This document shows positions 5,908-58,087 of a DNA stretch of 64,000 bases, one piece after another. This stretch comes from Desulfobaccales bacterium. GTDB lineage: Bacteria > Desulfobacterota > Desulfobaccia > Desulfobaccales > 0-14-0-80-60-11. The translations under genes and the position numbers were made by a program. The stretch's first letter is position 1, and every line of letters begins with the position of its first letter. The notes under the pieces are model-generated. The model did not search any database and was not told where the DNA came from. It saw only the letters and a list, made by a program, of their open reading frames with translations. The stretch lies in the NCBI GenBank assembly GCA_049585595.1, contig JBAVAG010000023.1, positions 2,135-66,134 of the forward strand, given 5' to 3'.

Positions 5908-5915
5908 TTGAAGCA

Positions 5916-11438: not shown

Positions 11439-11493
11439 AATATCTCCGCTAGGGCGCTTGCCCTTGACCTTGCCTTTGTTCTTCACTGATCAT

Positions 11494-12112: not shown

Positions 12113-12196
12113 ATAAGTCTATCTGGCAGGTTTGGAGGGGGCGCTGTCTTAACAATTTCCTCACAGGAAACAGGAAACTAATAACAGAAAACCGCC

Positions 12197-17888: not shown

Positions 17889-18063
17889 TTCACCTGCAAA
17901 ATCCCGCGTTTTAGCCCAAGGGACCTCCCACCTATTCTGGCGTCAAAGTCCGGCAGCAAATGCCCCCCAGTATACTTCCCAGCGGGAATTTTGCAAACGC
18001 ATTCGTCTCACGTGCGTCACCTGTCGCCAATCTTTCACTTCGTTCAGGATGACACCTTTTCTG

Positions 18064-18124
18064 GTAGCCGCAGGCGTAGGGGCGGGGTTTCCCCGCCCTG
18101 GGCGGCGAGACGCGGCCCCCACAG
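18064..18124. repeat. REP (GTAGCCGCAGGC-GTAGGGGCGGGGTTTCCCCGCCC-TGGGCGGCGAGACGCGGCC type)
   Basis: Double-hairpin GC palindrome. Near-identical copies at 18474-18544 and 35730-35776. Confidence 0.65.
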
Positions 18125-18227
18125 GCATCCGTTCTTTAGAAGATAAAGTCTCCGGCCGCCCTTGTCCAGGGGATTGGGGATTGTGAAGCCGCGGCCGCGG
18201 CTACGGGGAAAATCGGGGCCGGCAAGA

Positions 18228-18440: not shown

Positions 18441-18473
18441 TCCCTTACCCTTTATCCGAATCTGGTAGCCGCA

Positions 18474-18716
18474 GGCGTAGGGGCGGGGTTTACCCGCCCT
18501 GGGCGGCGAGACGCCGCCCCTACAGGCCTGCGCTCGTTTGATCTTTTTTCCGGTAGCCTAGGCGTCCCGCCTGTGGGCGTGATAAAGAATTCACGTCACA
18601 CAGGCCCGAGGCTTTTGCCACTTATACCTAACGTTGCCGCTTCCCTGACACGATGGTGCGCAGTGCGCACTCTACAGGAACTTTTGCCCTGGTAGCCGCA
18701 GGCTTTAGCCTGCGCT
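18474..18716. repeat. Cluster of three REP variants
   Basis: ggtagccgcaggcgtaggggcggggtttacccgccctgggcggcgagacgccgcccctacaggcctgcgc; ggtagcctaggcgtcccgcctgtgggcg; ggtagccgcaggctttagcctgcgc. Confidence 0.65.
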
Positions 18717-27600: not shown

Positions 27601-28780
27601 CGGACACCTCCAGGGCCTGGGCCACGGCCTCGACATCCTTGTCGCCGCGGCCCGAGAGATTGACGATAATCAGGTCATCCGGGGAATATTCGGGCGCCAG
27701 CCGCTCAAGATAGGCCACCGCGTGGGAGCTCTCCAGGGCCGGGAGTATCCCCTCGGTCCGGGACAGCAGTCGAAAACCCGCCAGGGCCTCGCTATCGCTC
27801 ACCGCTACATATTCGGCCCTTCCTGAATCCTTGAAATAGGAGTGCTCCGGGCCGACTCCGGGGTAATCGAGCCCCGGCGCCAGCGAATGGGCTTCCTGGA
27901 TGTTGCCCCAGGGATCCTGCAGGAGGTAACTGAAGGCGCCGTGCAGCACCCCCCGGCTCCCGGCCACCAGGGTGGCGGAGTGCTGTCCGCTGCCCAGGCC
28001 GTGGCCCGCAGCCTCCACCCCCACAAAGCGCACCACGTCGTCCTCAAAGGCGTGAAACAGCCCCATGGCGTTGCTGCCGCCGCCCACGCAGGCCACCAGG
28101 CATTGGGGCAGGCGGCCGGTGAGCCGGTGCAACTGGGCCTTGGCCTCCCGGCCGATGACCGCCTGGAAGTCCCGGACGATCATGGGATAAGGGTGCGGCC
28201 CGCCCACGGAGCCCAGGACATAGTGGGTGTGGCGCACGTTGGTGACCCAATCCCGGATGGCGTCGTTCATGGCATCCTTCAGGGTGCGGCTGCCGGACTC
28301 CACCGGGATCACCCGGGAGCCCAGGAGTCGCATGCGGATCACGTTGAGCCGCTGGCGCCGGATATCCTCCGTGCCCATGTAGATGTCGCACTCCAGCCCC
28401 AGCAGGGCGGCCACCGTGGCGGTGGCCACCCCGTGCTGGCCGGCCCCGGTTTCGGCAATAATCCTTTTCTTACCCATGCGGCGGGCCAGCAGCCCTTGGC
28501 CCAGGGTGTTGTTGATCTTGTGGGCCCCGGTATGGGCCAGGTCCTCCCGCTTGAGGTAAATCTGGGGGCCTCCCAGGGCTTCGGTCAGATGCCGGGCGTG
28601 GTATAAGGGCGTGGGCCGGCCCACGTAATCCTTAAGATACCAGGATAACTCCTCCCGAAATTGCCGTTCCCTGCTAATCCGATGATAGGCCGCCTCCAAC
28701 TCCAAAAGGGCCGGCATCAGGGTCTCCGGGACAAACCGGCCCCCATACCGCCCATATCTGCCATGCCGATCCGGTAACAA
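27587..28780 (-). CDS. trpB: Tryptophan synthase beta chain
   Basis: 397 aa. [16 protein letters not shown]..., PLP-lysine region [24 protein letters not shown]. Confidence 0.95.
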
Positions 28781-28801
28781 TTAAACCTCCTTTGTTCGCA
28801 C

Positions 28802-28900
28802 CAGTAATCAGTAATCAGTAATCAGTGGCCAGTGTCTTTATTAAGAATAAATGTGCTTTCTCGGCGATAAACCACCGCTCACTGCTTACTGCTCACTATC
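28802..28900. repeat. Heptamer-array element (inverted arrays around a 40-bp AT-rich core)
   Basis: (CAGTAAT)x3 CAGTGGC CAGTG ... core ... CG CTCACTG CTTACTG CTCACTA. Located just upstream of the trpB start. Confidence 0.7.
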
Positions 28901-29011
28901 GACCCTCCACCAGTGTCACCACCGCGCCGGCGCAGGCTTTGTTTGACGGACGATCATTATTCCTCTCGGCGCAGGCTAAAGCCTGCGGCTACATTGAATG
29001 CCGCCACCAAA

Positions 29012-29115
29012 CCCTGACCCCTGATCCCTGACCCTTCACCCCTGCCTTGTCTGCTCACTGCTCACTGCTCACTGACCACTGACTACTGGCTACTGACTAC
29101 TGGCTACTGGCTACT
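29012..29115. repeat. Two adjacent heptamer arrays
   Basis: CCCTGAC CCCTGAT CCCTGAC CCTTCAC CCCTGCC (29012-29046), then (CTCACTG)x3 ACCACTG ACTACTG GCTACTG ACTACTG GCTACTG GCTAC (29051-29115). The last units overlap the trpF 3' end. Confidence 0.75.
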
Positions 29116-29717
29116 TCGTCAAAAAAGTCCCTCAGCTTTTCCGGGTCCTTCTTCCCCGGGGCGGCCTCCACCCCGCTGGCCACGTCCACCGCCTGGGGCC
29201 GGGCCACCTCGATGGCCTGGGCCACGTTAGCCGGGGTCAGACCGCCGGCCAGGACGATGGGGCCGAATTCCTGCGCCCGCCGGGCCAGTCTCCAGTCGAA
29301 GGTCTCCCCGGTGCCTCCCGCCTGCCCGGATTTGTAGGTGTCCAGGAGAAAGGCCTGCACCGCGTCCCGGTACGCTGCCAGGGCCCCCAGGGAGCTTTCG
29401 TTTTCGATCCGGAATCCCTTCAGCACCCGTCGTCCCAGGCTCAAGCAGTACTCCGGCGATTCCCGGCCATGAAGCTGGACCCAATCCAGGCCCAACCGGG
29501 CGGCCAGTTCCCGCACTACTGCCGCCTCTTCATCGACGAAGACCCCGACACTCAGGACCAGGGGCGGCAGTTGCCGGATGATCTCCCGGGCCGCCCCCGG
29601 CGCCACCCGGCGCGGGCTGGCGGGATGAAAGATGAACCCCAGGGCGTCCGCTCCCAACTCCGACGCCAGCCGGGCGTCTTCAGGATTGGTGATGCCGCAG
29701 ATTTTGATGCGAACCAT
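29097..29717 (-). CDS. trpF: Phosphoribosylanthranilate isomerase
   Basis: 206 aa. MVRIKICGITNPEDARLASELGADALGFIF... Confidence 0.9.
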   Translation of the reverse strand: MVRIKICGITNPEDARLASELGADALGFIFHPASPRRVAPGAAREIIRQLPPLVLSVGVFVDEEAAVVRELAARLGLDWVQLHGRESPEYCLSLGRRVLKGFRIENESSLGALAAYRDAVQAFLLDTYKSGQAGGTGETFDWRLARRAQEFGPIVLAGGLTPANVAQAIEVARPQAVDVASGVEAAPGKKDPEKLRDFFDEVASSQ

Positions 29718-29734
29718 GCTTTTAGGACCCGGCG

Positions 29735-29798
29735 GCCACAGGCCGCCCTAGAGAATCAGCTCCGCCGCTTATACCTCATAGGGCGGGCTGTGCCCGCC
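29735..29798. repeat. Composite REP (GGCGGCCACAGGYCGCCCTAGA...CATAGGGCGGGCTGTGCCCGCC)
   Basis: Second copy at 45789-45857 has the same two hairpin modules in the same order. Confidence 0.65.
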
Positions 29799-29806
29799 GC
29801 CCTGTT

Positions 29807-30592
29807 TTAGCCGGCGTTCCCCAGGAACTCCCTCAACTTGGCCCCGGGGTCGCTCTCAGTCACCAGCGCCTCCCCGATGAGAAAGGCGTGGATGCCCGCG
29901 GCCTGGTATCTTTCGACCTCGGCCCGGGTCTTCAGACCCGAAGCGGCCACCAGGGTCACCCCCGGCGGGGCCAAGCGCGCCAGCTCCAACGCCCGGTCCG
30001 GGAATACCTTAAGGGTGTGCAGGTCCCGGGAATTGATCCCGATAACCCTGGCCCCCACGTTCAGGGCCGCGGCCATCTCCCCGGCGGTGTGCACCTCCAC
30101 CAGAGCCTCCAACCCGAGGGAACGGGTCAAGGACAGCAAGGCCCGGAGCCTCTCGGGGCTCAGAAGGCTGACGATCAGCAGCAGGGCGTCGGCCCCCAGG
30201 GCGGCGCTCTGGTAAACCTGAATCTCCTCCAAAATAAAATCCTTGCGCAGAATGGGAAGCCGGATCAGGGGTCGCAATCTCGGGATGAATTCGGGATCGC
30301 CTTTAAAAAAAGAGACCTCGGTGAGCACGGAGATGGCCGCCGCCCCGTTCTCCTGATAGCGTAGGGCCAGCTCCCCCAGGTCCCAGTGCATGGCAAACTC
30401 CCCTTTGCCAGGCGATGCCCGCTTTACTTCGGCGATGATAGCCGGACCGGGTCGGCCCGCAAGGGCTGCTTGCAGGCTGAAACACGCCGGCCGCCGGCCA
30501 ATCGCCGCCCGGAATTGCTCCATCAGCCCCGCCTCCCGCAAGCGCTGGCTCTCGGCCTCCTTCATCTCGACGATTTTTGCCAGAAAATCCAT
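29807..30592 (-). CDS. trpC: Indole-3-glycerol-phosphate synthase
   Basis: 261 aa. ...IIAEVKRASPGKG...ISVLTEVSFFKGD...LPILRKDFILEEIQVYQS... Confidence 0.9.
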   Translation of the reverse strand: MDFLAKIVEMKEAESQRLREAGLMEQFRAAIGRRPACFSLQAALAGRPGPAIIAEVKRASPGKGEFAMHWDLGELALRYQENGAAAISVLTEVSFFKGDPEFIPRLRPLIRLPILRKDFILEEIQVYQSAALGADALLLIVSLLSPERLRALLSLTRSLGLEALVEVHTAGEMAAALNVGARVIGINSRDLHTLKVFPDRALELARLAPPGVTLVAASGLKTRAEVERYQAAGIHAFLIGEALVTESDPGAKLREFLGNAG

Positions 30593-30600
30593 ATTTTTAA

Positions 30601-30684
30601 GCCATCAGCCTTCAGCAGTCAGCCTTCAGCCTGAAAATCGAGGTACTTTACTGATCACTGATCGCTGGTCACTGATTACTGATC
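30601..30684. repeat. Two heptamer arrays between trpD and trpC
   Basis: GCCATCA GCCTTCA GCAGTCA GCCTTCA GCCTGAA (30601-30636) and ACTGATC ACTGATC GCTGGTC ACTGATT ACTGATC (30649-30684). The second overlaps the trpD stop. Confidence 0.7.
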
Positions 30685-31748
30685 GCCGCCTCAAAGCTCC
30701 TGCTCTTGGCAATCAAGTCCTCCAGTTTCTGCAGGGCCTTCCCGGAGCGAATAGTCTGCCGGGCGAGTTCGAGACCCTGGGGAAAATCCGGGCTCAACCC
30801 CGCGGCTATGTATGCCGCGGCCGCGTTCAATGCCACCATATCTTCCCGGGCCCCCCCCTCCCCTGCCAGCACGGCGCGCACAATGCGGGCGTTTTCAAAG
30901 ACGTCGCCGCCCTTGATCTCCGCCAGGGTGGCCCGTTTAAGGCCGAAATCCTCCGGCGCGATGTCATAGGTGCGCACCTTGCCCTCCCGGAGTTGGCTCA
31001 CCCGGGTGGGGCCGACGATGCTGATTTCGTCATAGGAGCCTTCGCCATAGACCACAAAGGCGCTCTTGCCCCCCAGCTTCCCCAGGACGCAAGCCAGGGG
31101 CTCGGTGAGCCGGGCCTCGTAAACCCCCAGCACCTGGACGTTGGCGTCGGCCGGATTGGTGAGCGGCCCCAGGATATTGAAGATGGTGCGGATGCCGATC
31201 TCCCGCCGGGGACCGATGGCGTAGCGCATGCTCCCATGGAGTTGCGGGGCGAAGAGAAAGCCGATGCCCACTTCCAGGATGCACCAGGCCACCTGCTCCG
31301 AGGTGAGGGAGAGATTGATCCCCAGGGCCTCGATGACGTCCGCGGATCCGCAGCGGGAGGAGACTGCCCGGTTGCCGTGTTTGGCTACCTTGAGCCCGGC
31401 CCCGGCCACTACGAAGGCGGTGGTGGTGGAGACATTGAAGGTGGAAGTGGCGTCGCCGCCGGTGCCGCAGGTATCCACCACCGTCTCCCGATCCACGTTG
31501 ATTTCGTCCCGGTCCAGGCCGATGAGGCCACCGGAAATGGGAATGCGCGTGGCCTGGGTCCGCATCACCCGGGCCGCCGCGGTGATCTCCGCCACCGTCT
31601 CCCCCTTCATCCTAAGCGCGGTGATGAAGGAGCCGATCTGGGCCTCGGTGGCCTCGCCGCTCATGATAATCTCCATGGCCCGGGTCATCTCCGCTTCATT
31701 CAAGTCGTGCCCGTGAACCACCCGATAAATGGCTTCTTTCAGCATCAT
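30669..31748 (-). CDS. trpD: Anthranilate phosphoribosyltransferase
   Basis: Start set at [51 protein letters not shown] (360 codons). Motifs DTCGTGGD and KHGNRAVSS. The 523-aa track ORF is an upstream over-extension into the neighbouring gene. Confidence 0.9.
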
Positions 31749-31765
31749 TATAGTCCTGTAAGGGG

Positions 31766-33793
31766 CTATTTTATCCTGGTATAAATGGCCGCCAGGGCGA
31801 TGGGCGCCAGGACCCAACCCATGATTTTTTCCAGGTGCCAGTAAGCCCAGATATAGTTCGAGGGGGTCCCCGGCTGGAAAGCCCTGGCCGCCCCTAAATT
31901 GACTCCGGGCAGGAAGCGGTCCAGACTTACGGCCAACCCATTCCAAAAGGGCTGGCCGGAGGCGTGGAAGGCCAGCCAGCCCAGCAGCACCAGGGCCAGG
32001 GCTGGCCACAAGGTGCGGGCGGGTTTGCGGCCAAAGCCCGCCGGCCAATCCCAAAAAATCTTGGTAAGCCACCTGCCCGGGTGCCACCAGGGGAACTTTG
32101 CCAATTCCCGGCGCTTGCCGGTGATAAAGGCCTGGTCGGCCCATTTCCTGAGGCCGCCGCGCTGAAAAAAGGCGTCCAATTGCGAGTAATTCTGGGCGTT
32201 GAAGCGGCTGCGCCCCAGCCAATCCAGCAATTCCTGCCATTTTTCCGCTTTATGGGGCTCTCTTTTGGTGGTGAGGCTCTTATAGGTCAGCCCATCGAGA
32301 TAGAGTTTCAGATCGCGGTCTTGCGGGGCCGGCCATTCAGGTTCTACGAGTTGGAGATGGTAAAGCGAGGCGTCGCGCCAATCGGCCTCATCCTTGATGG
32401 CCAATCTCACCAACTCAACCGGGCCTTTAACCTCCAAACTCCTCGCCTCAAATCTTTTTACCTCAATATTTCTAATGGTTAATCGATGGGCGATCCTGGT
32501 GCGGTTCAGGACAATCTCATTTAGCGGCAGACCGCCAACGGAAAGGGGGTGCAGGCCTCGAATTACCAGGTCGGTTAGCTGCCCCTCCTTCAACACCAGG
32601 CCGCCGAAGAAAATGGTGCCGATGAAGAAGGCCCCCCGGCCTACCTTGAGGCCGGAGAAAATCGTGCTTTCACTCTTGAAGATGGCCTGGTCGGCATTGA
32701 AGACCCCGCCAACTTCGAGCCGGGAAAAATCGGCCGGACCCATAAACAAGGTCTTGAAGGTTTTAAGCCTGCCGAAAGGATCGAGGTAGAAATTGTCCTT
32801 CACCGCCATTCCGGTGAAATACGCCGACCCGGCGAAGATGGCGCCATTGGCGTGGAAACCGTGGCCCACCTGCACGGCCTCGAAATCACTGATGTGGCCT
32901 AAAAATTGTGCCTTATCCGCCGAAAACTCCCCACCAATCTGGGCGCCGCGAAAATTGACGCCGCTGCGAAAGGTGGCAGCCAGTTGGTGGCCGGATTTTT
33001 CCAAGGGATCCAGGTACAAATCCCCCGCTATCCCGACCAGGACAAAGCTCACCAGCCCGTGGAAATCGCAGCCCTGAAACGAGGCGTCCCGGCCCACCTG
33101 CATCCGCTGAAAATTGGCTTTATGATTGGGCGCCAGAAACCTAGCCCCCTGTGCCCCGAAGTCGCCTTTGATGACGGCGCTGCCAAAATCCGCCGGCCCG
33201 TGAAATTCCGCCCCATCGAAAAAAGCACCTTCACCCACATGCAGCCCGCTAAAGTTGGCCACCTGATCTTCTGCCAGGAACTTGGCCCCTTCCGCAGCGA
33301 ATTGGCCGTCGATGTCCGCGGCAGTGAGATTTACCATTCCGCTAAACACCGTGTCTCTACAAAACAGGCTTACCGCCAGTTTTAAGCGGTGAAAATCTAC
33401 CCCGTTCAAAAAATGTGAACCGTTTAATGATAAATATTCATCAAAACGAGCATCTCTAATGCTAAACCATTCTTTGAAGATACAAGCGTGTAAAGCCACC
33501 GCGACGGTAACCTCGCCATTCTCCAGGTCCAGCGGCTCCGCGATAACCGCACTGCTAATCCGCACCCCCAGGCGGTGCACCCGAACCCCCGGCAAATCCC
33601 CGGTCAACATCTCTTCCAGAAACCCGGCCCGCAGGCGCCGCTCTGCGGCCGCGTCCCCGAACTCCTGCTTCAGGTCGGCGATCTCCCCGGCGGCCGCCTG
33701 CTTCAGGACAAACTGCTCCTGCGGGCTGAGGGGCGAACCGTCACTTAGGGCAATTTCCTTTTTCGGGTCCATGGGGATTTTCGCTTTTTCCAA
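31766..33793 (-). CDS. Large membrane protein with degenerate pentapeptide-type repeats
   Basis: 675 aa. Central region of repeated F/L-x-G-A-x-F units ([46 protein letters not shown]...). C-terminal TM segments ([15 protein letters not shown]; [15 protein letters not shown]). Stop lies 17 nt upstream of the trpD ATG. Confidence 0.75.
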
Positions 33794-33872
33794 ATTCTCG
33801 ATCTTTAATATGGCAACGTTTCTTTCCGCCCCCCCTCACCCCACCCCTCTCCCGCGGTAGAGGCCTAGTTTC

Positions 33873-33932
33873 GGTGGGGCAGGCGTCCCTGCCTGCCTGC
33901 CTTGGTTGGCGGGCACGGAGGCCCGCCCCACC
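33873..33932. repeat. REP variant (GGTGGGGCAGGCGTCCCTGCC...GGCGGGCACGGAGGCCCGCCCCACC)
   Basis: GC palindromes with outer GGTGGGGC/GCCCCACC arms. Flanked by CCCCTCTCCC..GGGGAGAGGG hairpins (33826-33850, 33958-34005). Confidence 0.55.
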
Positions 33933-34087
33933 GATGGGAGTATTGCGGGAGATCCTTCCCTATCCCCTCTCCCCTAATGGGGGAGAGGGTTAGAGTGAGG
34001 GGAAATTAATCACTCACGCGTTTAAATGAATACGCTACCGGATTTACGAAATCGAGTGCTCACCAACTCACGTCCGGCGCCTAACCG

Positions 34088-34672
34088 TTACTCGCGATCT
34101 TCCCTGCCGATTTCGAAGGGCGCCGCGGCTCGCTCGGCCAAGACCCTGGCGCCCGCGGCCAGTCCGGCCTCCAGGGCCCGCTCGTTCATTTCCCGGCTGG
34201 CGGCCGGCACCCGGGCCAGGACCGCGGCTTTCAAACCTTCCCGGGAAACCGCGCCGGTGATGGCCGCCAGGGCCCCCAAGGCCACGATGTTGGCCATCAA
34301 TTCCCTGCCGGCCTCCCGGGCCATGCGGGTAAAGGGAATGGCCAGCGCCCCCGACTCCGGCACCTCTCGCACCAGGTCGGCGTCCACCAGCAGCACCCCT
34401 CCCTCTTTCAGGTCACCCAGAAAAACGTCCAGAGACTTCTGGTTCAGGGCGAGCAGCACGTCGGGCTGGATGGCCTTGGGGTAATCGATCTCCGCATCAC
34501 TGATGACCACCTCCGCCTTGGAGGCGCCCCCCCGGGCCTCGGGGCCATAACTCTGGGTCTGGCAGACAAACTTGCCGTCATAAATCCCGGCGGCCTCCGC
34601 CAGGATCACCCCTGCCAGCACCAACCCCTGGCCACCGGAGCCGGCCAGGCGAATCTCAAAGCGCATTGCCAT
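34088..34672 (-). CDS. 2-oxoacid:ferredoxin oxidoreductase, gamma subunit
   Basis: 194 aa. EIRLAGSGGQGLVLAGVILAEAA...QSYGPEARGGASKAEVVIS. Confidence 0.85.
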   Translation of the reverse strand: MAMRFEIRLAGSGGQGLVLAGVILAEAAGIYDGKFVCQTQSYGPEARGGASKAEVVISDAEIDYPKAIQPDVLLALNQKSLDVFLGDLKEGGVLLVDADLVREVPESGALAIPFTRMAREAGRELMANIVALGALAAITGAVSREGLKAAVLARVPAASREMNERALEAGLAAGARVLAERAAAPFEIGREDRE

Positions 34673-34682
34673 AATTTGGGCT

Positions 34683-34752
34683 CAAAGGTCGAGGTTATCA
34701 GTTCAAGGTTCAAAGGTTTGAGGTTTGAGTTTAGAGGGTTGCGGTTTAGGCT
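34683..34752. repeat. Heptamer array (NNAGGTT)n spanning the gamma/beta junction
   Basis: CAAAGGT CGAGGTT ATCAGTT CAAGGTT CAAAGGTT TGAGGTT TGAGTTT AGAGGGT TGCGGTT TAGGC. Covers the last ~16 codons and the stop of the beta-subunit gene. Confidence 0.65.
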
Positions 34753-35590
34753 TCGCTCCCAAGGCCGCCCGGGCCGCGACCTGGATGCGCCGGTATTCCT
34801 CGGTATAGATGGGCAGCTCGCGGTCCACCAGGACGCCGATGGTGATCTTGCCCGCCAGTTCCTCCGGGCTCATGGTGGCGGCCTTCTCCACCCGCACCGC
34901 CATCTCCTTCTGAGCCCGCATCATCTCCACCGGGCCGCCCTTCTTGTTCTTCGAGCCGAACTGGGTGTGGCAATGGCTGATGACCTCCACCACGGCAAAG
35001 CCCCCCTTCCTGAGGGCCTGTTCCATCAACCGGTCCAACAGGGTGACGTGGTACACCGTGCCCCGGCCCACCATGGCGGCGCCCGCCGTCACCGCCATCT
35101 CGCTGATGGAGAAGGCGTGTTCGATATGCCCGTATTGAGCAGTGGCCGCCCAGGCCCCGTAAGGGGTGGTGGGAGAAAATTGCCCGCCGGTCATGCCATA
35201 GATATTGTTGTTGATGATAATGGCCGTCAGGTCCAGATTGCGCCGGGCCGCATGGATGAAATGATTGCCGCCGATGGCGGTGGCGTCGCCGTCCCCCATG
35301 ACTACGATGACCTTGAGCTTGGGGTTGGCCAGCTTGACGCCGGTGGCAAAGGTGAGGGCCCGGCCGTGCGTGGTGTGCAGGGTATTGAAATCGACGTACA
35401 CGCTTATGCGCCCGGAACAGCCGATGCCCGAAACCAGGACGATCTCATCCTTGGTGTAGCCAATAGCGTCGATGGCCCGGATCATGGATCCCAGGACGAT
35501 GCCGTTGCCGCAGCCCGGACACCAGACGTGGGGGAACCTCTTCTCGTGGCGCAGGTATTTGTGAATCAGTTTGGTGACATCTTCGGCCAT
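34703..35590 (-). CDS. 2-oxoacid:ferredoxin oxidoreductase, beta (TPP-binding) subunit
   Basis: 295 aa. WCPGCGNGIVLG..., GIGCSGR, TPP motif VVMGDGDATAIGGNHFIHAARRN. Confidence 0.9.
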   Translation of the reverse strand: MAEDVTKLIHKYLRHEKRFPHVWCPGCGNGIVLGSMIRAIDAIGYTKDEIVLVSGIGCSGRISVYVDFNTLHTTHGRALTFATGVKLANPKLKVIVVMGDGDATAIGGNHFIHAARRNLDLTAIIINNNIYGMTGGQFSPTTPYGAWAATAQYGHIEHAFSISEMAVTAGAAMVGRGTVYHVTLLDRLMEQALRKGGFAVVEVISHCHTQFGSKNKKGGPVEMMRAQKEMAVRVEKAATMSPEELAGKITIGVLVDRELPIYTEEYRRIQVAARAALGAKPKPQPSKLKPQTFEP

Positions 35591-35660
35591 TTTCAGCTCT
35601 CCGCGAAGGCGAGGGTAGCACAGTTGGTGTAGCCCAAAATTTCCTTTTTTCCCGCTACCC

Positions 35661-35856
35661 TAATTTTGCCCTTTAATTTTTGCCTTTTTACTTTTTACTT
35701 TTGCCTTTTTGGGCATTGCGCACCATTTCGTAGGGGCGGGGTTTCCCCGCCCAGGGCGGCGAGACGCCGCCCTTACAACACAGGCTTCCAGCCTGTGATC
35801 GGGTCGCCCGGGCGCTCAGCTTTTTTTCTGGTGGCCGCAGGCTTTAGCCTGCGCTG
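35661..35856. repeat. Repeat-filled spacer between the alpha and beta subunit genes (T-rich heptamers plus three REP modules)
   Basis: TTTTGCC CTTTAAT TTTTGCC TTTTTAC TTTTTAC TTTTGCC TTTTTGG, followed by gtaggggcggggtttccccgcccagggcggcgagacgccgcccttac, cacaggcttccagcctgtgatcgggtcgccc and ggtggccgcaggctttagcctgcgc. Confidence 0.7.
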
Positions 35857-35868
35857 TAAGCAGTCCTC

Positions 35869-37011
35869 TTACATTTTCATGAGTCTATCCATAATCTCAT
35901 CCGGCGTAATCAAATTGCCGTCGATCCGATTCAAGGCCTCCACCCGGGTCAGGCCCTGGTTGATTCTTTTTACCTCCCGGGACATCTGGCCCATATTGAG
36001 CTCTGGCACCAGGGCGGCCCGCACCTGGCGCAGCAGCGGCTCCAACTGCCGCCGGGGAAAGGGCCAGAGGGTGATGAGTTGCAGCAGTCCGGCCTTGATC
36101 CCCCGCTCCCGGGCCTCGGCCACCGCCCGCCGGGCGCTGCGAGCCACCGAGCCGTAGGCCACCACCAGGATCTCGGCGTCCGCCGTCTGCACCTCTTTCA
36201 CCATCTGGATGTCATGGAAGTGTTGGGTGATCTTGCGGAACAGGCGGTTCAAAAAAGGCACGATCTCGTCGGGGCGTTCTGTGGGAAAACCCCGCACGTC
36301 ATGGATCAGACCGGTAACGTGGTAACGGTAGCCGTCCCCGAAGATGCCCATGGGGGGCACCCCGCTGGCGGTGTCGGCATACGGAAGGTACCATTCCGGC
36401 GGCATGTCCGGGCGCACCCGGTCCACTACCTCCAGGGGCGTCTCCGGCGGCAGCAGGAGCTTCTCCCGGGTGTGCCCAACCACTTCATCGCTCAAAATGA
36501 TCACCGGGGTCCGGTATTTTTCCGCCAGCGAGAAGGCCTTCACCGTGAGCTCGAAGCATTCCTGGGTGGTGGAGACCGCCAGGACGATGATGGGGTGGTC
36601 CCCGTGGGTCCCCCAGCGGGCCTGCTGCACGTCCCCCTGGCTGACGTGGGTGGCGAGACCCGTGGAAGGCCCGCCCCTCATAACGTTGACGATAACCGCG
36701 GGCACCTCGGCCACGCAGGCGAACCCCAGGTTCTCCTGCATCAGGGAAAACCCCGGGCCGCTGGTGGCGGTCATGGCCTTGGCCCCGGCCAGGGAGGCGC
36801 CGATAACCGCTCCCATGGAGGCGATTTCATCCTCCATCTGAATAAAGGTGCCGTCCACCGCGGGCAGGCGGTAGGACATGACTTCGCTGATCTCCGTGGC
36901 CGGGGTGATGGGATAGCCGGCAAAAAAACGGCAACCGGCATAGAGGGCGCCCTCCACCATGGCTTCGTTGCCTTGGAGCAGTCTGGCTTTCCCGGGGGTC
37001 CCGCCATTCAT
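35869..37011 (-). CDS. 2-oxoacid:ferredoxin oxidoreductase, alpha subunit
   Basis: Start set at MNGGTPGKARLLQGNEAMVEGALYAGCRFFAGYPITPATE (381 codons, SD GGAGAG), after the stop of the delta gene. Contains ...TATSGPGFSLMQE... The track ORF over-extends by 29 codons. Confidence 0.9.
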   Translation of the reverse strand: MNGGTPGKARLLQGNEAMVEGALYAGCRFFAGYPITPATEISEVMSYRLPAVDGTFIQMEDEIASMGAVIGASLAGAKAMTATSGPGFSLMQENLGFACVAEVPAVIVNVMRGGPSTGLATHVSQGDVQQARWGTHGDHPIIVLAVSTTQECFELTVKAFSLAEKYRTPVIILSDEVVGHTREKLLLPPETPLEVVDRVRPDMPPEWYLPYADTASGVPPMGIFGDGYRYHVTGLIHDVRGFPTERPDEIVPFLNRLFRKITQHFHDIQMVKEVQTADAEILVVAYGSVARSARRAVAEARERGIKAGLLQLITLWPFPRRQLEPLLRQVRAALVPELNMGQMSREVKRINQGLTRVEALNRIDGNLITPDEIMDRLMKM

Positions 37012-37039
37012 GGTTTCTCTCCCATCCAGTTTGCCAATG

Positions 37040-37351
37040 TCATTCCGTCTCCTCCGCTGCCGGTTCTTTGGCAACCACCTCCTTGACGCAGATGGCAAAG
37101 TCCGGACAATGCAGTTCGCACCAGCGGCAGCCGTTGCAGCGCTCAGGGCTCTTCACCCGCGGCGCCCCCTGGGCGTCCATCTCCAGGCACTGCCGGGGGC
37201 AAAAGGCGGCGCAGATGCCGCAGGACTTGCACCAGTCCCGAAAGATGTCGATTTCAAACTGCGGCTGGGGCTTTTCGGAAGGTTCCGGTCCGGCCGGCCC
37301 CTTCTTAGACTCTAAGGTCTGATTTGCCTCGAATTTCGTATCCTTATCCAT
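37040..37351 (-). CDS. 2-oxoacid:ferredoxin oxidoreductase, delta (2x[4Fe-4S] ferredoxin) subunit
   Basis: 103 aa. CKSCGICAAFCP ... CNGCRWCELHCP dicluster motifs. Confidence 0.85.
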   Translation of the reverse strand: MDKDTKFEANQTLESKKGPAGPEPSEKPQPQFEIDIFRDWCKSCGICAAFCPRQCLEMDAQGAPRVKSPERCNGCRWCELHCPDFAICVKEVVAKEPAAEETE

Positions 37352-37547
37352 AGTCAGTAGCCAGTAGTCAGTAATCAGTGAGCAGTGAGCAGTGAGCAGT
37401 AAAACCTAACTTCTGTCAGTAATCGCAAAATGATTAGACATTTGGATCATTTTCATTAATTATCACATTCACTCAGGCAAAGAAAAAAACGATTGAGTTG
37501 AAAAGCCTACCGATCACCGACTACTGGCTACTGACTACTGGCTACTG
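37352..37547. repeat. Heptamer-bounded element E1 (downstream flank of trpG)
   Basis: Seven CAGT-type heptamers (AGTCAGT AGCCAGT AGTCAGT AATCAGT GAGCAGT x3; 37352-37400), a core, then the inverted array ACTACTG GCTACTG ACTACTG GCTACTG (to 37547). Core 37433-37504 is homologous to 38177-38249. Confidence 0.75.
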
Positions 37548-37549
37548 CT

Positions 37550-38122
37550 TCAGCCCCGGCTGCGCTTCCTGAAATTGCGCAGCAGATTGATGCCTTCGGC
37601 GGTCATGATGGACTCGGGATGAAACTGCACTCCGAAGATGGCGTATTCCCGGTGGCGCAGCCCCATGATCTCCCCCACCGCAGTCTGGGCCGAAACTTCG
37701 AGACAGGCGGGCAAAGTCTCCCGCTCCACGATGAGGGAATGGTAACGGGTGGCCTCAAAGGGAGAGGGAACGCCCTGGAAGAGATCCCGTCCGTCATGAT
37801 AAATGAGGGAGGTCTTGCCGTGCATCAGCCGGGTGGAGCGGATGACCCGGCCCCCGAAGGCCGCGCCCAGGGCCTGGTGTCCCAGGCACACTCCCAGGAT
37901 GGGAATCTGTCCGGCAAAATGGAGGATGGCCGCCATGGAAATCCCCGCTTCGGTGGGAGAGCAAGGTCCTGGAGAGATTACCAGCCGGTCCGGCTGGACC
38001 GCCTCAATTCCCTTAAGGTCTATCTGGTCATTGCGAAAGACCCGGACCTCCTCTCCCAACTGGCCGAAATACTGCACCAGATTATAGGTGAAAGAATCAT
38101 AGTTATCTATCATTACTAACAT
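37550..38122 (-). CDS. trpG: Anthranilate synthase component II (glutamine amidotransferase)
   Basis: 190 aa. [19 protein letters not shown]..., catalytic GVCLGHQ, ...FGVQFHPES. Confidence 0.9.
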
Positions 38123-38130
38123 ATCTGCCT

Positions 38131-38284
38131 CAGTGAGCAGTGAGCAGTGAGCAGTGAGCAGAAAAATCTAAAACCAATTAGACATTGAGATCATTTTGAT
38201 TACTTATCACATTCCCTTAAGCAATGAATAGTAACGATTGAGCTGAAAACCATACTGCTCACTGCTTACTGCTTACTGCTCACT
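38131..38284. repeat. Heptamer-bounded element E2 (upstream flank of trpG)
   Basis: (CAGTGAG)x4 at 38131-38158, a core, then CTGCTCA CTGCTTA CTGCTTA CTGCTCACT at 38255-38284 (the inverted complement). Same orientation and core as E1. Confidence 0.75.
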
Positions 38285-38289
38285 CCCCG

Positions 38290-39771
<1,482 letters not shown>

Positions 39772-39896
39772 GTCTGCTCCGTCTATTGATCTAAAATTTA
39801 ATCCAGATAACCGCCTTTAACCACAATTAAAATAATTATTTTTGTGTTTTGCCTGACGGTGCTCAATGAACGTTGCCAGCGGCGGTTGGCCGCGGT

Positions 39897-39928
39897 AAAA
39901 AAAAACCGCGTCCCTAATGGGCCACGGC
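39897..39928 (-). terminator. Second hairpin + U9 tract in the trpE leader (possible second terminator)
   Basis: Minus-strand RNA GCCGUGGCCCauuaGGGACGCGG followed by UUUUUUUUU. The alternative hairpin CGCGGU-U(n)-ACCGCG uses the same 3' arm. Confidence 0.4.
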
Positions 39929-39940
39929 TTTTATAAAGCG

Positions 39941-39974
39941 CCAAAAAACGGGGCCCCTCTCGCGAGGGGCCCCC
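39941..39974 (-). terminator. trp attenuator (intrinsic terminator)
   Basis: Minus-strand RNA GGGGCCCCUC-GCGA-GAGGGGCCCC followed by GUUUUUUGG. A perfect 10-bp GC stem about 30 nt after the leader-peptide stop. Confidence 0.8.
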
Positions 39975-40003
39975 AAATATCTCTCACTGGCTGGAGACGC
40001 ACC

Positions 40004-40060
40004 TCACGAAACCGCCATCACCCGCCACCAGCACCAGTTTTTTGAATCGAAATTTTTCAT
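40004..40060 (-). CDS. trpL: trp operon leader peptide (18 aa, MKNFDSKNWCWWRVMAVS)
   Basis: ATG at 40060 and TGA at 40006-40004. Three Trp codons within four positions (W9-C10-W11-W12). Sits between the promoter and the attenuator, upstream of trpE. Below the 60-aa cutoff of the ORF track. Confidence 0.8.
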   Translation of the reverse strand: MKNFDSKNWCWWRVMAVS

Positions 40061-40078
40061 CTTCTTTTCTCTGAAAAG

Positions 40079-40107
40079 TGTATATTCAAATCACTGATTG
40101 TTGTCAA
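40079..40107 (-). promoter_or_regulatory. Sigma70-type promoter of the trp operon
   Basis: Minus strand: TTGACA (40107-40102), 17 nt spacer, TATACA (40084-40079). The leader ATG lies 19 nt downstream of the -10. Confidence 0.6.
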
Positions 40108-40158
40108 TAGGTTTCCTGAAACGGAATCGAATTACCTTCAATAATCGGGAGAATCAGA

Positions 40159-40386
40159 TTGAAATTTCTCATTACCATATCCCAGGATGAAGACGGCATG
40201 TATATCGCCGAATGCCCTGCCATCCCGGGCTGCGTCAGCCAGGGACGGACAGAAGTTGAGGCGGAAAGAAACATTAATGAGGCGATCAAGGAATGCCTGG
40301 CCGTGCGCGCTGAAAAAGGATTACCGTTGACGGTCCCTACCCGCCAGATCGAGGTTGAGGTGGAATGGGGTCAATCCCCTTACTGA
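40159..40386 (+). CDS. hicB: HicB-family antitoxin (UPF0150 / RNase H-like fold)
   Basis: 75 aa. MKFLITISQDEDGMYIAECPAIPGCVSQGRTEVEAERNINEAIKECL is the typical HicB N-domain. TTG start with GGGAGA SD. Confidence 0.75.
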   Translation: MKFLITISQDEDGMYIAECPAIPGCVSQGRTEVEAERNINEAIKECLAVRAEKGLPLTVPTRQIEVEVEWGQSPY

Positions 40387-40624: not shown

Positions 40625-41527
40625 TTAACCTTTCTTTAGACAAGATAATAAAGGGTCATGCAAAATCCCATTGCTTGCCAAAATATTAGGCGAGTAGAGG
40701 TCGTAAGGCCCGCCGCTGAAGTTGCTGAGGCGGCCGCCGGCTTCACTGATGAGCAGCAGGCCGGCCGCGGTGTCCCAGGGTTTGAGGTTTTCTTCATAGA
40801 AGGCGTCTAATCGGCCGCAGGCCAGATAACTCATGTCCAGGGCGGCGGCGCCGGCCCGCCGCAACCCCTGGACCGTCCCCAGGATGCGCGAGAGCCGGGC
40901 TATGGTCTCCGGCAGCCTCTCCCGGATGTCGTAGGGAAAGCCCGTGGCCACCAACGCCCGGTCCAGGCGGTCAATCCCGGATACCTGGATGGCCTGGCCG
41001 TTCAGCAGGGCGCCCTGGCCACGTCTCCCCTCAAAGAGCTCATCCCGCATGGGGTCGTAGACCACCCCATATTCCAGTCGTCCCTCGACCTCCAGGGCGA
41101 TGGACACGCAGAAGGCCGGAAAGCCGTGGGCGAAGTTGACCGTGCCGTCCAGGGGGTCGATGATCCAGCGGCAGGGCCGCGGCTCCGAGTCCGGGTGCAG
41201 GGTCGCCTGGGGCCCAAGTCCATCGGCCCCTCCTGCGGCTGCCGTTTCCTCCGCCAGGAAGCCATGATCCGGAAAATTCCGGCGGATCAGGGCCACGATC
41301 AGTTCCTGGGATTGCAGATCGCTTTCGGTGACCGGGTCGATGGCCCCCTTGTAGGTTATCCGGTGGGGTTTGGAGAAGTTCAGCCGCAATAGAGCGCCGG
41401 CCGCCAGGGCCGCCTGCCGCCCGGTCTGGACCAGCCCCTCCCACATATCTTTATTCAATTCCACCCGAACACCCTTTTCTGCGAGGCCAGAAAGCCTGCC
41501 CATCGCCGTATTAATTTCCGTTCTCAA
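40625..41527 (-). CDS. suhB: Inositol monophosphatase family protein
   Basis: 300 aa. ...HGFLAEE..., ...WIIDPLDGTVNFAHGFP..., ...AAALDMSYLACGRLDAFYE... Confidence 0.8.
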   Translation of the reverse strand: MRTEINTAMGRLSGLAEKGVRVELNKDMWEGLVQTGRQAALAAGALLRLNFSKPHRITYKGAIDPVTESDLQSQELIVALIRRNFPDHGFLAEETAAAGGADGLGPQATLHPDSEPRPCRWIIDPLDGTVNFAHGFPAFCVSIALEVEGRLEYGVVYDPMRDELFEGRRGQGALLNGQAIQVSGIDRLDRALVATGFPYDIRERLPETIARLSRILGTVQGLRRAGAAALDMSYLACGRLDAFYEENLKPWDTAAGLLLISEAGGRLSNFSGGPYDLYSPNILASNGILHDPLLSCLKKG

Positions 41528-41534
41528 GAGAAAT

Positions 41535-41554
41535 GGTGGGCAGTGCCCACCTAC
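41535..41554. repeat. Solo copy of the RAYT-associated REP
   Basis: GGTGGGCAGTGCCCACCTAC. Same hairpin as the RAYT flanks at 11494 and 12112, with one C fewer. Confidence 0.7.
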
Positions 41555-41613
41555 ACTTTAATAAGCCGTAACCGGGTTTTGCATTTGCTGATAGCTGATA
41601 GCTGAACGCTTTT

Positions 41614-42057
41614 TCAATCGATCTTAAGCAACTGAAACCCGGCCTTCGGGTCCTTTTTCCGGGAGGCGGCGGCTCCCAGGATCTCCAGGAGCACCACCTC
41701 CCCCACCAGCCATACCGCTACCCCGGCCCGGGTACAGCCCACCGTGCCCTGCCCCTCACGTCCCGCGGCGGCGTGCATATGCAGCACCGGCTCCCCCGCC
41801 TCATTGGGGATCAGGGTTCCCAGGGCCAAAACCTCCTGGGCGCCACTTAGGGTATGGATCATGGGAACGATGTCTTCCCGGTTGGCAACTGGTCCCACCA
41901 CCAACCGGCTGCCATCCCCGGCCCCTCCCAGGTAAAATGCCAGTCCATGGTCGATCTTGTGCTCCCGGGCAAATTTCTCGATGCTGTCATTAAGCTGCTC
42001 GCCCTCTTCCAACCGCAAAACGAAGATGCGTCCCAGCCGCCCTTCACTGAATTGCAT
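41614..42057 (-). CDS. PPC-domain (DUF296) protein
   Basis: 147 aa. GRIFVLRLEEGEQLNDSIEKFAREHKIDHGLAFYLGGA...HMHAA..., typical of the DUF296/PCC fold. Confidence 0.6.
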   Translation of the reverse strand: MQFSEGRLGRIFVLRLEEGEQLNDSIEKFAREHKIDHGLAFYLGGAGDGSRLVVGPVANREDIVPMIHTLSGAQEVLALGTLIPNEAGEPVLHMHAAAGREGQGTVGCTRAGVAVWLVGEVVLLEILGAAASRKKDPKAGFQLLKID

Positions 42058-45066: not shown

Positions 45067-45110
45067 GGCCCTGACATTTACCGATAACTGAAAACCGAAA
45101 ACCGTTCTCC

Positions 45111-45788: not shown

Positions 45789-45857
45789 GGCGGCCACAGG
45801 TCGCCCTAGAAGATCCCCCCTTCGCATTTGCCCATCATAGGGCGGGCTGTGCCCGCC
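45789..45857. repeat. Composite REP, second copy
   Basis: ggcggccacaggtcgccctagaagatc...catagggcgggctgtgcccgcc. Matches 29735-29798. Confidence 0.65.
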
Positions 45858-45948
45858 TCCCTAACCGCGTTCCCTAAAAACTTCATATAAACCCTTGATA
45901 TGGCAATAGGCGGCGTAATTAGATAAAATCTTTCCAGGAGAACATCCG

Positions 45949-55459: not shown

Positions 55460-55616
55460 GTAGGGGCGACGGTGGCACAGGCTTCCAGCCTGTGACTGGG
55501 TCGCCCTACCCGCTGGGTCACCCTCGCCTGAAATAGGGCGGCCTGTGGCCGCCAGGTCCGGCGGGCCCAGCCAGACCTATCAGGTCGCGTTGGGCAGCCG
55601 CAGGCTTTAGCCTGCG
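55460..55616. repeat. Cluster of three REP variants
   Basis: gtaggggcgacggtggcacaggcttccagcctgtgactgggtcgccctac; aatagggcggcctgtggccgcc; gcagccgcaggctttagcctgcg. Confidence 0.65.
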
Positions 55617-55620
55617 ATTA

Positions 55621-58033: not shown

Positions 58034-58065
58034 AGCCCGCCCTATAATTTGGGGAGAGGAGATTT

Positions 58066-58087
58066 AATAGGGCGGCCTGTGGCCGCC
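58066..58087. repeat. REP variant AATAGGGCGGCCTGTGGCCGCC
   Basis: Identical to 55532-55553. Confidence 0.65.

Follow-up and report, generated by a model that had tools for sequence, protein, structure and literature searches.

Heptanucleotide tandem arrays between the genes of a Desulfobaccales trp operon and of phage contigs: position, orientation and predicted pairing

What are the short tandem arrays that occupy the gaps between the genes of a Desulfobaccales trp operon, and what keeps them there? The DNA analysed, hereafter called the window, is a stretch of 64,000 nucleotides (nt) from a Desulfobaccales bacterium (assembly GCA_049585595.1, contig JBAVAG010000023.1, positions 2,135 to 66,134), and coordinates given below are positions within it unless another locus is named. 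The G+C fraction (GC) of the window is 0.60. Its arrays, with units of seven nucleotides, are concentrated in a minus-strand operon with the order trpE (38290-39771), trpG (37550-38122), a ferredoxin gene (fdx, 37040-37351), korA, korB and korG (subunits of a 2-oxoacid:ferredoxin oxidoreductase), a gene for a pentapeptide-repeat protein of 675 amino acids, trpD, trpC, trpF, trpB and trpA. To our knowledge, heptanucleotide arrays, called the commonest long simple repeat in bacterial genomes, have been without an accepted explanation since 1990. The arrays of the window are heptanucleotide simple-sequence arrays of the class called short tandemly repeated repetitive (STRR) sequences or long simple sequence repeats (long SSR), and are an orderly example of this known, unexplained class.

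All of the 16 arrays listed in an earlier note on this DNA were recovered by Tandem Repeats Finder, with coordinates that were exact or off by a few bases, and they are also directly visible in the sequence. A lag-match scan of the window detected 14 strong arrays with a period of 7 and none with periods of 3-6, 8-11 or 13; the remaining signals were multiples of 7 and a period of 15 originating from the pentapeptide-repeat gene. The number expected by chance for period 7, estimated from 50 third-order Markov simulations of the window, was 0.28 on average with a maximum of 2. At a lower scan threshold 24 period-7 arrays were found, 19 of them in non-coding DNA, which makes up 17 % of the window. 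The period was constant while the units varied, as had been claimed, with at least eight unit families within 64 kb (e.g. CAGTGAG, AACCTNN, GGCAAAA, TTTTCNG, GGCTGAA and CAGGGRT). The density was likewise highest in the trp operon, where six of the eight gaps contained arrays compared to two of the 34 gaps elsewhere in the window (Fisher p = 1.4e-4). Each of the properties of the long-SSR/STRR class, i.e. tandem excess, bias to non-coding DNA, unit variety together with density in the lineage, and length change by whole units, was found.

The TrpG protein of the window is encoded with exactly the same sequence on contigs of six other assemblies, derived from different samples. These six independent contigs were 99.4-100 % identical to the window and agreed with it in arrays and copy numbers; what few differences there were lay at contig ends or in korA, with one single base inside an array. 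The arrays are thus not assembly artefacts, a possibility that the earlier note had left open, since they occur with the same copy numbers in six independently assembled contigs. Nor do they belong to the contingency SSRs of phase variation, as no difference in copy number was observed in this small sample of six assemblies with 99.4-100 % identity and the neighbours of the arrays are housekeeping genes.

In the large gaps, read in the sense of the mRNA, an array of CAGT type (AGTGAGC, AGTAAGC or CAGTAGC) stands right after the stop codon and a complementary array of ACTG type (CTCACTG, ACTGATT, ACTGACT or ACTGGCT) right before the next gene. The spacing was -19 to +8 nt from stop codon to array and 0-21 nt from array to start codon. 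RNA folding predicted that the two arms pair into bulged stems of approximately 30-38 bp which enclose the whole spacer, a length within the 25-50 bp suggested earlier. In imperfect arms a mismatch comes every 7 nt.

In the trpE-trpG gap (the arrays of this operon all being on the minus strand), the post-stop arm at 38254-38284, with the sense units AGTGAGC/AGTAAGC, begins 5 nt past the trpE stop codon (38290-38292) and the pre-start arm at 38131-38161, sense (CTGCTCA)4, ends 8 nt before the ATG of trpG (38120-38122). The core between them (38162-38253, GC 0.29) is looped out by the predicted stem, and a Shine-Dalgarno (SD) sequence, GAGG, sits directly at the foot of the stem. The minimum free energy (MFE) predicted for this gap was -66.4 kcal/mol (z -5.7 against shuffled sequences). 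The trpG-fdx gap has the same plan, with a post-stop arm at 37511-37547 (sense CAGTAGC/CAGTAGT) beginning 2 nt past the trpG stop codon (37550-37552), a core at 37401-37510 (GC 0.32) and a pre-start arm at 37352-37400 (sense ACTGCTC/ACTGATT/ACTGACT/ACTGGCT) that abuts the ATG of fdx (37349-37351). The fdx gene has no SD sequence and its start codon lies within the foot of the predicted stem (MFE -79.4 kcal/mol, z -7.2).

The larger trpF-trpB gap (MFE -126.4 kcal/mol, z -4.7) contains four arrays. The post-stop arm at 29051-29115, sense (AGTAGCC/AGTAGTC/AGTGAGC)9, includes the last five codons of trpF and its TAG stop codon (29097-29099) and has stop codons in all three frames. Its part at 29071-29115 is predicted to pair with the pre-start arm at 28802-28834 (sense CACTGGC/CACTGAT/TACTGAT) in a stem of approximately 34 bp that encloses the whole gap, the SD sequence of trpB, AAGGAGG, following 10 nt further. 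Two inner arrays are found between them, at 29012-29044 (sense CAGGGGT/CAGGGAT) and at 28873-28897 (sense AGTGAGC/AGTAAGC). The spacer between two tRNA-Ser genes follows the same plan with other units, (GUUUUCN)n with (CNGAAAA)n: the array (GTTTTCN)4 in the 3' trailer of tRNA-Ser(tga), at 6478-6507 and 12 nt from the tRNA, pairs across a 207-nt core with an AAAACAG-type array in the 5' leader of tRNA-Ser(gct), at 6229-6270 and 13 nt from the tRNA, both on the minus strand. Between trpD and trpC the predicted stem was weaker (z = -2.7), consisting of UCAG:CUGA blocks of 4-6 bp with internal loops at the 7-nt period. There the post-stop array at 30650-30684, sense (GATCAGT/AATCAGT)5, supplies the last four codons and the TGA stop codon (30669-30671) of trpD, and the pre-start array at 30600-30636, sense (CTGAAGG/CTGACTG)5, precedes trpC. 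The inverted pairs described in the earlier note are therefore present in the tRNA-tRNA, trpF-trpB, trpG-fdx and trpE-trpG spacers and only partly in trpD-trpC. Its AT-rich cores are found in trpE-trpG and trpG-fdx, and not in trpF-trpB, which has a GC of 0.55 (0.60 for the window).

The same arrangement was found in phage contigs. An exact scan of IMG/VR for (CAGTGAG)3 gave 40 stretches, and several contigs had many sites on both strands (loci L132-L171). Many of these contigs had a GC of 0.58-0.65 and 1-1.8 arrays per kb, and L140, of lower GC, reached 3.0. Their units match the repertoire of the window (ACTGCTC, ACTGATC, AAAACCG, AGCTATC, AACCTTG and AGGGATC), and AACTGGG was also present. 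Structural modules of phages or prophages were recognised on L133, L146 and L151 from their portal, head-tail connector, tail and baseplate genes, and almost all gaps of these three loci contain an array pair. When genes were predicted with a crude GC3-weighted picker of open reading frames (ORFs; GC3 being the GC of third codon positions), 77 of 130 co-directional gaps (59 %) contained an array, an occupancy that is inflated because the contigs were chosen for containing (CAGTGAG)3; the orientation figures are unaffected by this choice.

On the sense strand of the phage contigs, CAGT-type arrays were nearer to the stop codon in 43 cases and nearer to the start codon in 12, whereas ACTG-type arrays were nearer to the stop codon in two and nearer to the start codon in 29 (Fisher p = 3.5e-11). 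The median distance was 2 nt from stop codon to array and 12 nt from array to start codon. Among 86 adjacent array pairs, arms in the same gap were more complementary to each other than arms from different gaps (Mann-Whitney p = 8e-9), and at least six unit families had matched complements (e.g. GTTCAAG-CTTGAAC, GTTTTCC-GGAAAAC and TTTCGGT-ACCGGAA). Folding of four compact gaps of phage contigs and of one from the related locus L090, rhomboid-PCC, gave z values from -2.6 to -7.6. All five had the order stop codon, stem, SD sequence, start codon, most with a single mismatch every 7 nt. The loops of the four phage gaps were A-rich and (AAAGGCA)n-like; SD-like AAGG motifs were noticed in these loops.

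Three further arrays of the window stand alone. The korB-korG gap has a single direct array (34683-34752, minus strand) of approximately ten NNAACCT units with no inverted partner, which spans the last korB codons, the korB stop codon (34703-34705) and the gap up to the korG start. A single post-stop array at 41587-41606 (minus strand), (ATCAGCT)2.7, begins 8 nt past the stop codon of the gene at 41614-42057 and is followed by a hairpin of the repetitive extragenic palindromic (REP) kind. On the plus strand, opposite to the trp operon, an array at 45080-45104 (AAAACCG/AAACTGA) ends 6 nt before the start (45111) of a PHP-domain gene which has no SD sequence. In the korA-korB gap an A-rich array (35661-35713, minus strand, sense AGGCAAA/AGTAAAA) lies beside REP-like GC-rich hairpins; it resembles the A-rich loops of the phage stems and is absent from the related locus L087.

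How the arrays change was followed at orthologous loci of four related species, compared over 20 kb each. The TrpG of L087 is 96 % identical to that of the window, with approximately 93 % identity in DNA, and the TrpG proteins of L088, L089 and L090 are 90, 87 and 86 % identical, respectively. The four loci contain 5-9 period-7 arrays each, i.e. 0.24-0.44 per kb, and essentially none at other periods. The background was 0.022 arrays per kb in 79 unrelated bacterial loci, among which 7 was likewise the most frequent of the periods not divisible by 3. Judged from these loci, heptamer arrays are a clade-wide feature of this Desulfobaccales lineage.

The korB-korG array of L087 has exactly one 7-nt unit more than that of the window. 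In the trpF-trpB gap of L087 (107 nt) the post-stop array is followed at once by the SD sequence, and the window has an additional block of approximately 280 nt with heptamer arrays at both ends; the flanks are preserved, so the block has been either inserted or deleted. The pre-start (GGCTGAA)n array of the trpD-trpC gap is common to the window and L087, and in the same gap the window has a new post-stop (ATCAGTR)5 array where L087 has an unrelated GC-rich sequence of 130 nt. In the trpG-fdx gap the 198-nt array-core-array of the window corresponds to an unrelated 53-nt spacer with an SD sequence in L087; nothing of such a spacer remains in the window, the whole of it having been replaced. 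Over 167 nt the trpG-fdx element matches the trpE-trpG element of the window itself with 72 % identity, and the trpE-trpG core of L087 is homologous to both window cores (38162-38253 and 37401-37510), from which it follows that the whole array-core-array module has been copied from the trpE-trpG gap into the neighbouring trpG-fdx gap. This copy, together with blocks present or absent between species that are 93 % identical, agrees with the earlier description of the arrays as recombination-generated and more than simple microsatellites.

In the more distant relatives the gaps keep their layout with other sequences. The trpE-trpG arms of L090 are as in the window around a different core, and in L090, where one 20-kb locus has genes on both strands, the orientation rule goes with the direction in which each gene is transcribed. 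All five species have an array a few nt from the start codon of the PHP-domain gene, with differing units, and the AT-rich core of the gap before this gene is conserved in L088 and L090 around arms that differ. Instead of heptamer arrays, the trp gaps of L088 (9906-10001 and 10591-10738) and L089 (9902-10001) contain another long hairpin (TTTGGGGGAACCCCGC...GCGGGGTTCCCCCAAA; TTTGGGGGAACCCCGCTTTTT...AAAAGCGGGGTTCCCCCAAACCCCCTCCTGG), so position and structure are kept in these gaps and sequence is not. Overall, position and foldability persist while sequence turns over.

The explanation that best accommodates these observations, to which we give an even chance of being correct, is that slippage-prone heptamers are kept as self-folding palindromes reaching from the stop codon to the SD sequence and act as intercistronic mRNA structures. 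If a gap is co-transcribed with its operon, its CAGT-type and ACTG-type arrays would pair in the RNA into a stem of approximately 30-38 bp that loops the spacer out and brings the stop codon next to the start codon. The arrays gain and lose whole 7-nt units, and complementary arms and whole array-core-array modules, one such copy being documented above, would be created or copied locally, by template switching or by recombination between neighbouring gaps. The gaps of an operon would tolerate only inserts that fold on themselves, as a hairpin would hold re-initiation next to termination and keep long stretches of untranslated RNA folded. The stems would then serve as RNase III substrates, as their length leads one to expect, or as barriers to exonucleases. 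Since the predicted 30-38 bp provide the approximately two or more turns of double-stranded RNA that RNase III needs in a transcript, the role as RNase III site or stabiliser that was suggested earlier is plausible. A buried start codon with no SD sequence, such as that of fdx or of the PHP-domain gene in L090, would need an upstream ribosome or a cleavage that opens the stem. The observations establish that the arrays exist, where they lie, how they are oriented, that their arms are complementary and how they change, whereas co-transcription, folding of the RNA in the cell and any effect on processing or translation belong to the proposal.

Several observations weigh against this explanation. 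The single arrays of korB-korG and at 41587 and 45080 showed no partner and no significant structure on folding, and because several arrays are single, unpaired and unstructured, pairing cannot be the whole story. Stems maintained in the sense RNA should have more G:U pairs than A:C mismatches on the sense strand, but in 23 oriented stems 22 G:U pairs and 35 A:C mismatches were counted, giving no signature of selection on the sense RNA, and the folding energies of sense and antisense strands were mixed with no consistent asymmetry. A role as SD substitutes was not borne out, as four of the six genes preceded by arrays had no SD sequence compared to roughly 47 % (a rough estimate) in the rest of the window, which is not a significant difference. 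The CAGT[GA][AG] units after stop codons place stop codons in all three frames, but a function as all-frame stops does not agree with the CAGTTCC/CAGTTGC arrays, which have no stop codon, or with the TGG found in 8 % of T-R-R units. The inflated array occupancy of the phage gaps also counts on this side, as does the fact that cleavage by RNase III, coupling of translation and shielding from Rho are all inferred. The period of 7 itself is left unexplained.

Other candidates for the content of the gaps were considered and rejected. Nothing in the gaps was matched by Rfam, either with gathering thresholds or when the operon was scanned permissively; the permissive scan of 28700-40200 returned one chance-level match, to a miRNA precursor model (E = 0.33). 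No convincing sense-strand candidate for an internal promoter or intrinsic terminator was found in the cores, and the short ORFs read there, considered as small peptides or trp leaders, have no conserved start codon and no Trp codons. Spacing of (G/U)AG triplets like that bound by the trp RNA-binding attenuation protein (TRAP) was rejected because the same arrays are also found outside trp operons.

It is also possible, though unlikely, that the arrays are bound by a protein with a reading register of 7 nt or 7 bp on nucleic acid. This could be an RNA-binding factor (cold-shock-domain, S1 or similar) controlling translation at start codons, as proposed for the TAACTGA repeats of Beggiatoaceae, or a protein that binds or bends DNA, as suggested for the sites in Geobacter, with the hairpin secondary or competing. 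The strict period of 7 and the limited variation of units would fit such a protein, the 567 CAGTNNN units tallied in CAGT-family arrays varying only in the last three positions, as would the strongly non-random orientation to stop and start codons, the repertoire shared between host chromosome and phage contigs and the existence of single, unpaired arrays. ACTGA-type units directly before starts that lack an SD sequence also recall the Beggiatoaceae TAACTGA (PMC4679880) and Geobacter MTYCTGA (PMC2700814) units. However, one sequence-specific factor would not read all of at least eight unrelated unit families in 64 kb, complementarity of arms within gaps across many families is not needed for binding, and no candidate factor was identified in this analysis.

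The earlier note had called the elements MITE-like, and a distinctly small probability is given to their being non-autonomous elements resembling miniature inverted-repeat transposable elements (MITEs), with heptamer arrays as terminal inverted repeats, mobilised by a transposase or recombinase encoded elsewhere and possibly spread by phages. The arms are indeed inverted arrays, 25-50 nt in length. At trpG-fdx and trpF-trpB, species that are 93 % identical differ in whether the element is there, a whole module has been duplicated into the neighbouring gap, units are common to the host, the phage contigs and an unrelated AT-rich contig, and short-read contigs break at arrays as they would at multi-copy sequence. 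However, no target-site duplication was seen when the trpE-trpG, trpG-fdx and trpF-trpB junctions were compared by eye with the element-free sites of L087, and at trpG-fdx the native spacer was replaced, not interrupted. The conserved core occurs only at two adjacent gaps within the 64-kb window, and cores are specific to their gaps and conserved between species while arms change. A scan of metagenome contigs for GAATGTGATAANTNATNAAAAT gave 41 matches, none of them core-like beyond the 22-nt pattern, as would occur by chance. Many arrays are single, and arrays change in 7-nt steps. With target-site duplication and dispersed core both failing, the MITE label is unsupported.

Only one locus, L104, gave longer BLAST matches to the core query, and these came from its own CAGTGAG/CTCACTG arrays. 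L104 is an unrelated AT-rich metagenome contig in which the same heptamer recurs as a CAGTGAG/CTCACTG inverted pair, together with a second hairpin of GTGATGAAT-type repeats (1295-1387 and 520-690).

The sole transposase of the window is a RAYT-like Y1 enzyme with REP hairpins of its own that differ from the arrays, which also speaks against a MITE. The heptamer arrays do not belong to the REP/REPIN class either, as their units are not palindromes and the RAYT-like gene is flanked by the different hairpin GGTGGGCAGTGCCCACC; units of that class are imperfect palindromes of approximately 20-40 nt with a conserved GTAG end, associated with a REP-flanked Y1 (RAYT) transposase. Its IS200-like ORF (11529-12077; PF01797, E = 2.8e-6) is flanked at 11492-12114 by inverted arms of 36 nt, 94 % complementary, which contain GGTGGGCAGTGCCCACC, and this putative gene with its hairpins has the layout of a REP-associated tyrosine transposase (RAYT). 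The GGTGGGCAGTGCCCACC hairpin recurs at 41521-41551, beside a heptamer array. At least three further families of GC-rich intergenic hairpin repeats look REP-like (GTAGGGGCGGGGTTTCCCCGCCC..GGGCGGCGAGACGCCGCCC, GCAGGCTTTAGCCTGCG and ATAGGGCGGGCTGTGCCCGCC) and often share gaps with heptamer arrays. A first group of sites lies at 3868-3899, 6370-6421, 18060-18140, 18461-18541 and 35714-35794, a second at 18681-18716, 35820-35855 and 55583-55618, and a third at 29776-29803, 45835-45862 and 58065-58092.

A bolder proposal is that the stems are a post-transcriptional device found across phyla and disseminated by phages, in which a (CAGURRN)n arm after the stop codon and an (NNNACUG)n arm before the start codon form a stem whose foot would set the stop codon of one gene against the start codon of the next. 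Expression of the downstream gene, sometimes with no SD sequence, would then depend on the terminating ribosome opening the hairpin, in a shunt-like termination-reinitiation, or alternatively on RNase III or a factor reading the RNA in steps of 7 nt. The chance that this is so is considered small. If it were, the ACTG/CTGA core shared by cyanobacteria, Beggiatoaceae, Geobacter and Desulfobaccales with their phages would represent one conserved recognition mechanism.

It is at least as improbable that the arrays are neutral by-products of slippage, with 7-nt units favoured by the published polymerase-contact idea (a hypothesis of Mrazek et al. quoted in PMC4679880 and PMC4692102) and with their location set by where indels that are not multiples of 3 are tolerated. 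The clean one-unit indel between close species, the prominence of 7 among the non-multiple-of-3 periods in the 79 unrelated loci, the lack of a wobble-pair signature of RNA selection and the fast turnover of spacer content are all as slippage would have them. Slippage would not, however, be expected to place a complementary array across the gap, as the same-gap complementarity (p = 8e-9) requires. It also leaves unexplained the orientation rule (p = 3.5e-11), the occupation of the same gaps by different units in five species and the arrays in the majority of gaps of compact phage operons, and the arrays were stable across the six near-identical assemblies.

That the arrays are assembly or sequencing artefacts is very nearly out of the question: although short-read contigs of the clade often end at arrays, identical arrays and copy numbers were found in the six assemblies from different samples, and arrays are present at orthologous loci of related species on contigs of 64 kb to 2.07 Mb.

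Short-read assemblies of the clade appear to break at heptamer arrays, the practical consequence being that arrays fragment the short-read assemblies of these organisms. Dozens of contigs with close TrpG homologues consist only of the gene and its flanks (approximately 0.7-1.2 kb); a length of no more than about 1 kb is common among TrpG-encoding contigs, and L002 and L004 terminate within arrays.

The host and the surroundings of the arrays can be described as follows. The closest TrpE, 73 % identical, is from a Desulfobaccales metagenome-assembled genome in a species-level genome collection, the next being from Desulfobulbia at approximately 55 %, and the TrpG homologues of 79-96 % identity are labelled Desulfobaccales or Thermodesulfobacteriota by their sources. 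The window is therefore part of a metagenome-assembled genome of Desulfobaccales (Desulfobacterota), from an uncultured relative of sulfate reducers. The trp operon is split between trpG and trpD by the ferredoxin, korA, korB, korG and 675-amino-acid pentapeptide-repeat genes (31766-37351), an arrangement kept in the relatives L003, L087 (10627-16241) and L090. Another gene of pentapeptide repeats is found at 331-1887; such repeats, like heptamer arrays, are typical of cyanobacteria. Two riboswitch aptamers of c-di-GMP-I type stand in tandem on the minus strand (5540-5620 and 5829-5908; RF01051, 39.6 bits, and RF03167, 64.5 bits), upstream of a gene (4468-5370) with a putative ice-binding-like adhesive domain.

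Clustered period-7 arrays were also seen in unrelated genomes retrieved by TrpE, namely L086 (Chthoniobacter), L072 (Gemmatimonadales), L054 (Kofleriaceae), L009 (Desulfobulbaceae) and L028 and L084 (Xanthomonadales). Inverted pairs are present there, e.g. TTGGATG with AACATCC and GGGCTTT with GCCCAAA, and L028 and L084 carry TTCCCGA, a rotation of the reverse complement of the Xanthomonas unit GGGAATC.

The lineage offers an unusually clean natural experiment, in which species approximately 7 % apart show a one-unit indel, gain or loss of blocks and spacer replacement at orthologous gaps, a strict rule of orientation links arrays with stop and start codons, and phage contigs with the same units have arrays in most gaps. 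Should the stems turn out to serve processing or coupling, they would provide a general rule for how long operons, including the structural operons of phages, tolerate and use intergenic insertions; should a factor with a 7-nt register exist, the arrays would be its regulon.

Among known systems, the STRR sequences of heterocystous cyanobacteria, with units such as CCCCAGT and CAACAGT that share a CAGT core, were reportedly first described in Calothrix PCC 7601 (cited in PMC4692102). The analogy to them drawn in the earlier note is supported: both consist of tandem 7-nt units with several variants per genome, lie between genes within operons at high density and have a CAGT/ACTG core, and AACTGGG (= CCCAGTT) arrays occur in the phage contigs studied here. 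The present arrays differ in being found in Desulfobacterota, at a GC of 0.60; their organisation as inverted pairs from stop to start codon with a strict orientation rule may set them apart as well. The REP sequences and bacterial interspersed mosaic elements (BIMEs) with their RAYT, the enterobacterial repetitive intergenic consensus (ERIC) and the Correia elements are co-transcribed palindromic intercistronic elements which can affect mRNA stability or be cut by RNase III. A similar behaviour, tolerated inside operons, is inferred for the heptamer stems, but those elements are unit palindromes of conserved sequence, not tandem 7-mers, and the window carries separate REP families and a RAYT-like gene besides its heptamer arrays. 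The polycistronic mRNAs of phage T7 have intercistronic RNase III hairpins of unique sequence with defined internal loops, the cleavage of which has been demonstrated. Both are stem-loops between phage genes in long operons, with an array in 59 % of the co-directional gaps of the present contigs (inflated by their selection), whereas the present stems are repeat arrays and are predicted only.

In the summary given in PMC4679880, a 2007 report found heptanucleotide repeats to be the most abundant long simple repeats in most bacterial genomes and suggested polymerase slippage over a 7-nt contact as the cause. Xanthomonas genomes have approximately 185 GGGAATC-type arrays each, including 70-75 convergent inverted pairs with stem-loop potential; relatives have the same gaps occupied by arrays of different length and sequence, most arrays are transcribed, and the heptamer SSRs are over-represented in intergenic regions, with GGGGAYT as the unit in Nostoc (Rehm et al. 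2015, PMC4692102). Heptamer repeats near the starts of Nostoc recF and recO affect reporter expression (bioRxiv 10.1101/2022.06.06.494920). The arrays of Rehm et al. share with the present ones the intergenic excess, the inverted pairs and the same gaps with varying length and sequence, but their units are G-rich and form G-quadruplexes, unlike those described here, and no stop/start rule is reported there (PMC4692102). The TAACTGA arrays of marine Beggiatoaceae, some cyanobacteria and Bacteroidetes lie in forward orientation just upstream of starts that lack ribosome-binding sites, differ by 7-nt indels between strains and are patchily distributed in phylogeny (MacGregor 2015, PMC4679880). 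They too are ACTGA-containing heptamers a few nt upstream of starts, changing by 7-nt indels, but consist of essentially one unit that is nearly always direct (one inverted among 170), whereas the present arrays have many units and commonly a post-stop complement.

A further case is Geobacter metallireducens, with eight pairs of five MTYCTGA units (class 3) on opposite strands, e.g. in proB-proA, and 49 GGGACCG x4 elements (Aklujkar et al. 2009, PMC2700814). It belongs to the same phylum in current taxonomy and has opposite-strand tandem heptamer pairs with a CTGA core in the gaps of biosynthetic operons, but there are only eight such pairs, read there as sites for IHF/HU or a global regulator, and no relation to stop and start codons was described. 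The earlier statement that nothing of the kind had been reported in this kind of organism is thus only partly right, as these paired heptamers are also from Desulfobacterota. No mechanism is given in PMC4679880, PMC4692102, PMC2700814 or bioRxiv 10.1101/2022.06.06.494920, and a literature search for the exact CAGTGAG array returned nothing relevant to bacteria. Heptamer excess, inverted pairs and pre-start arrays have thus already been published, for cyanobacterial STRR sequences, Xanthomonas, Beggiatoaceae and Geobacter. New compared to this literature are the rule that ties array orientation to stop and start codons, the geometry of stop codon, stem and start codon, and the finding that most gaps of the phage contigs with the shared unit repertoire contain arrays.

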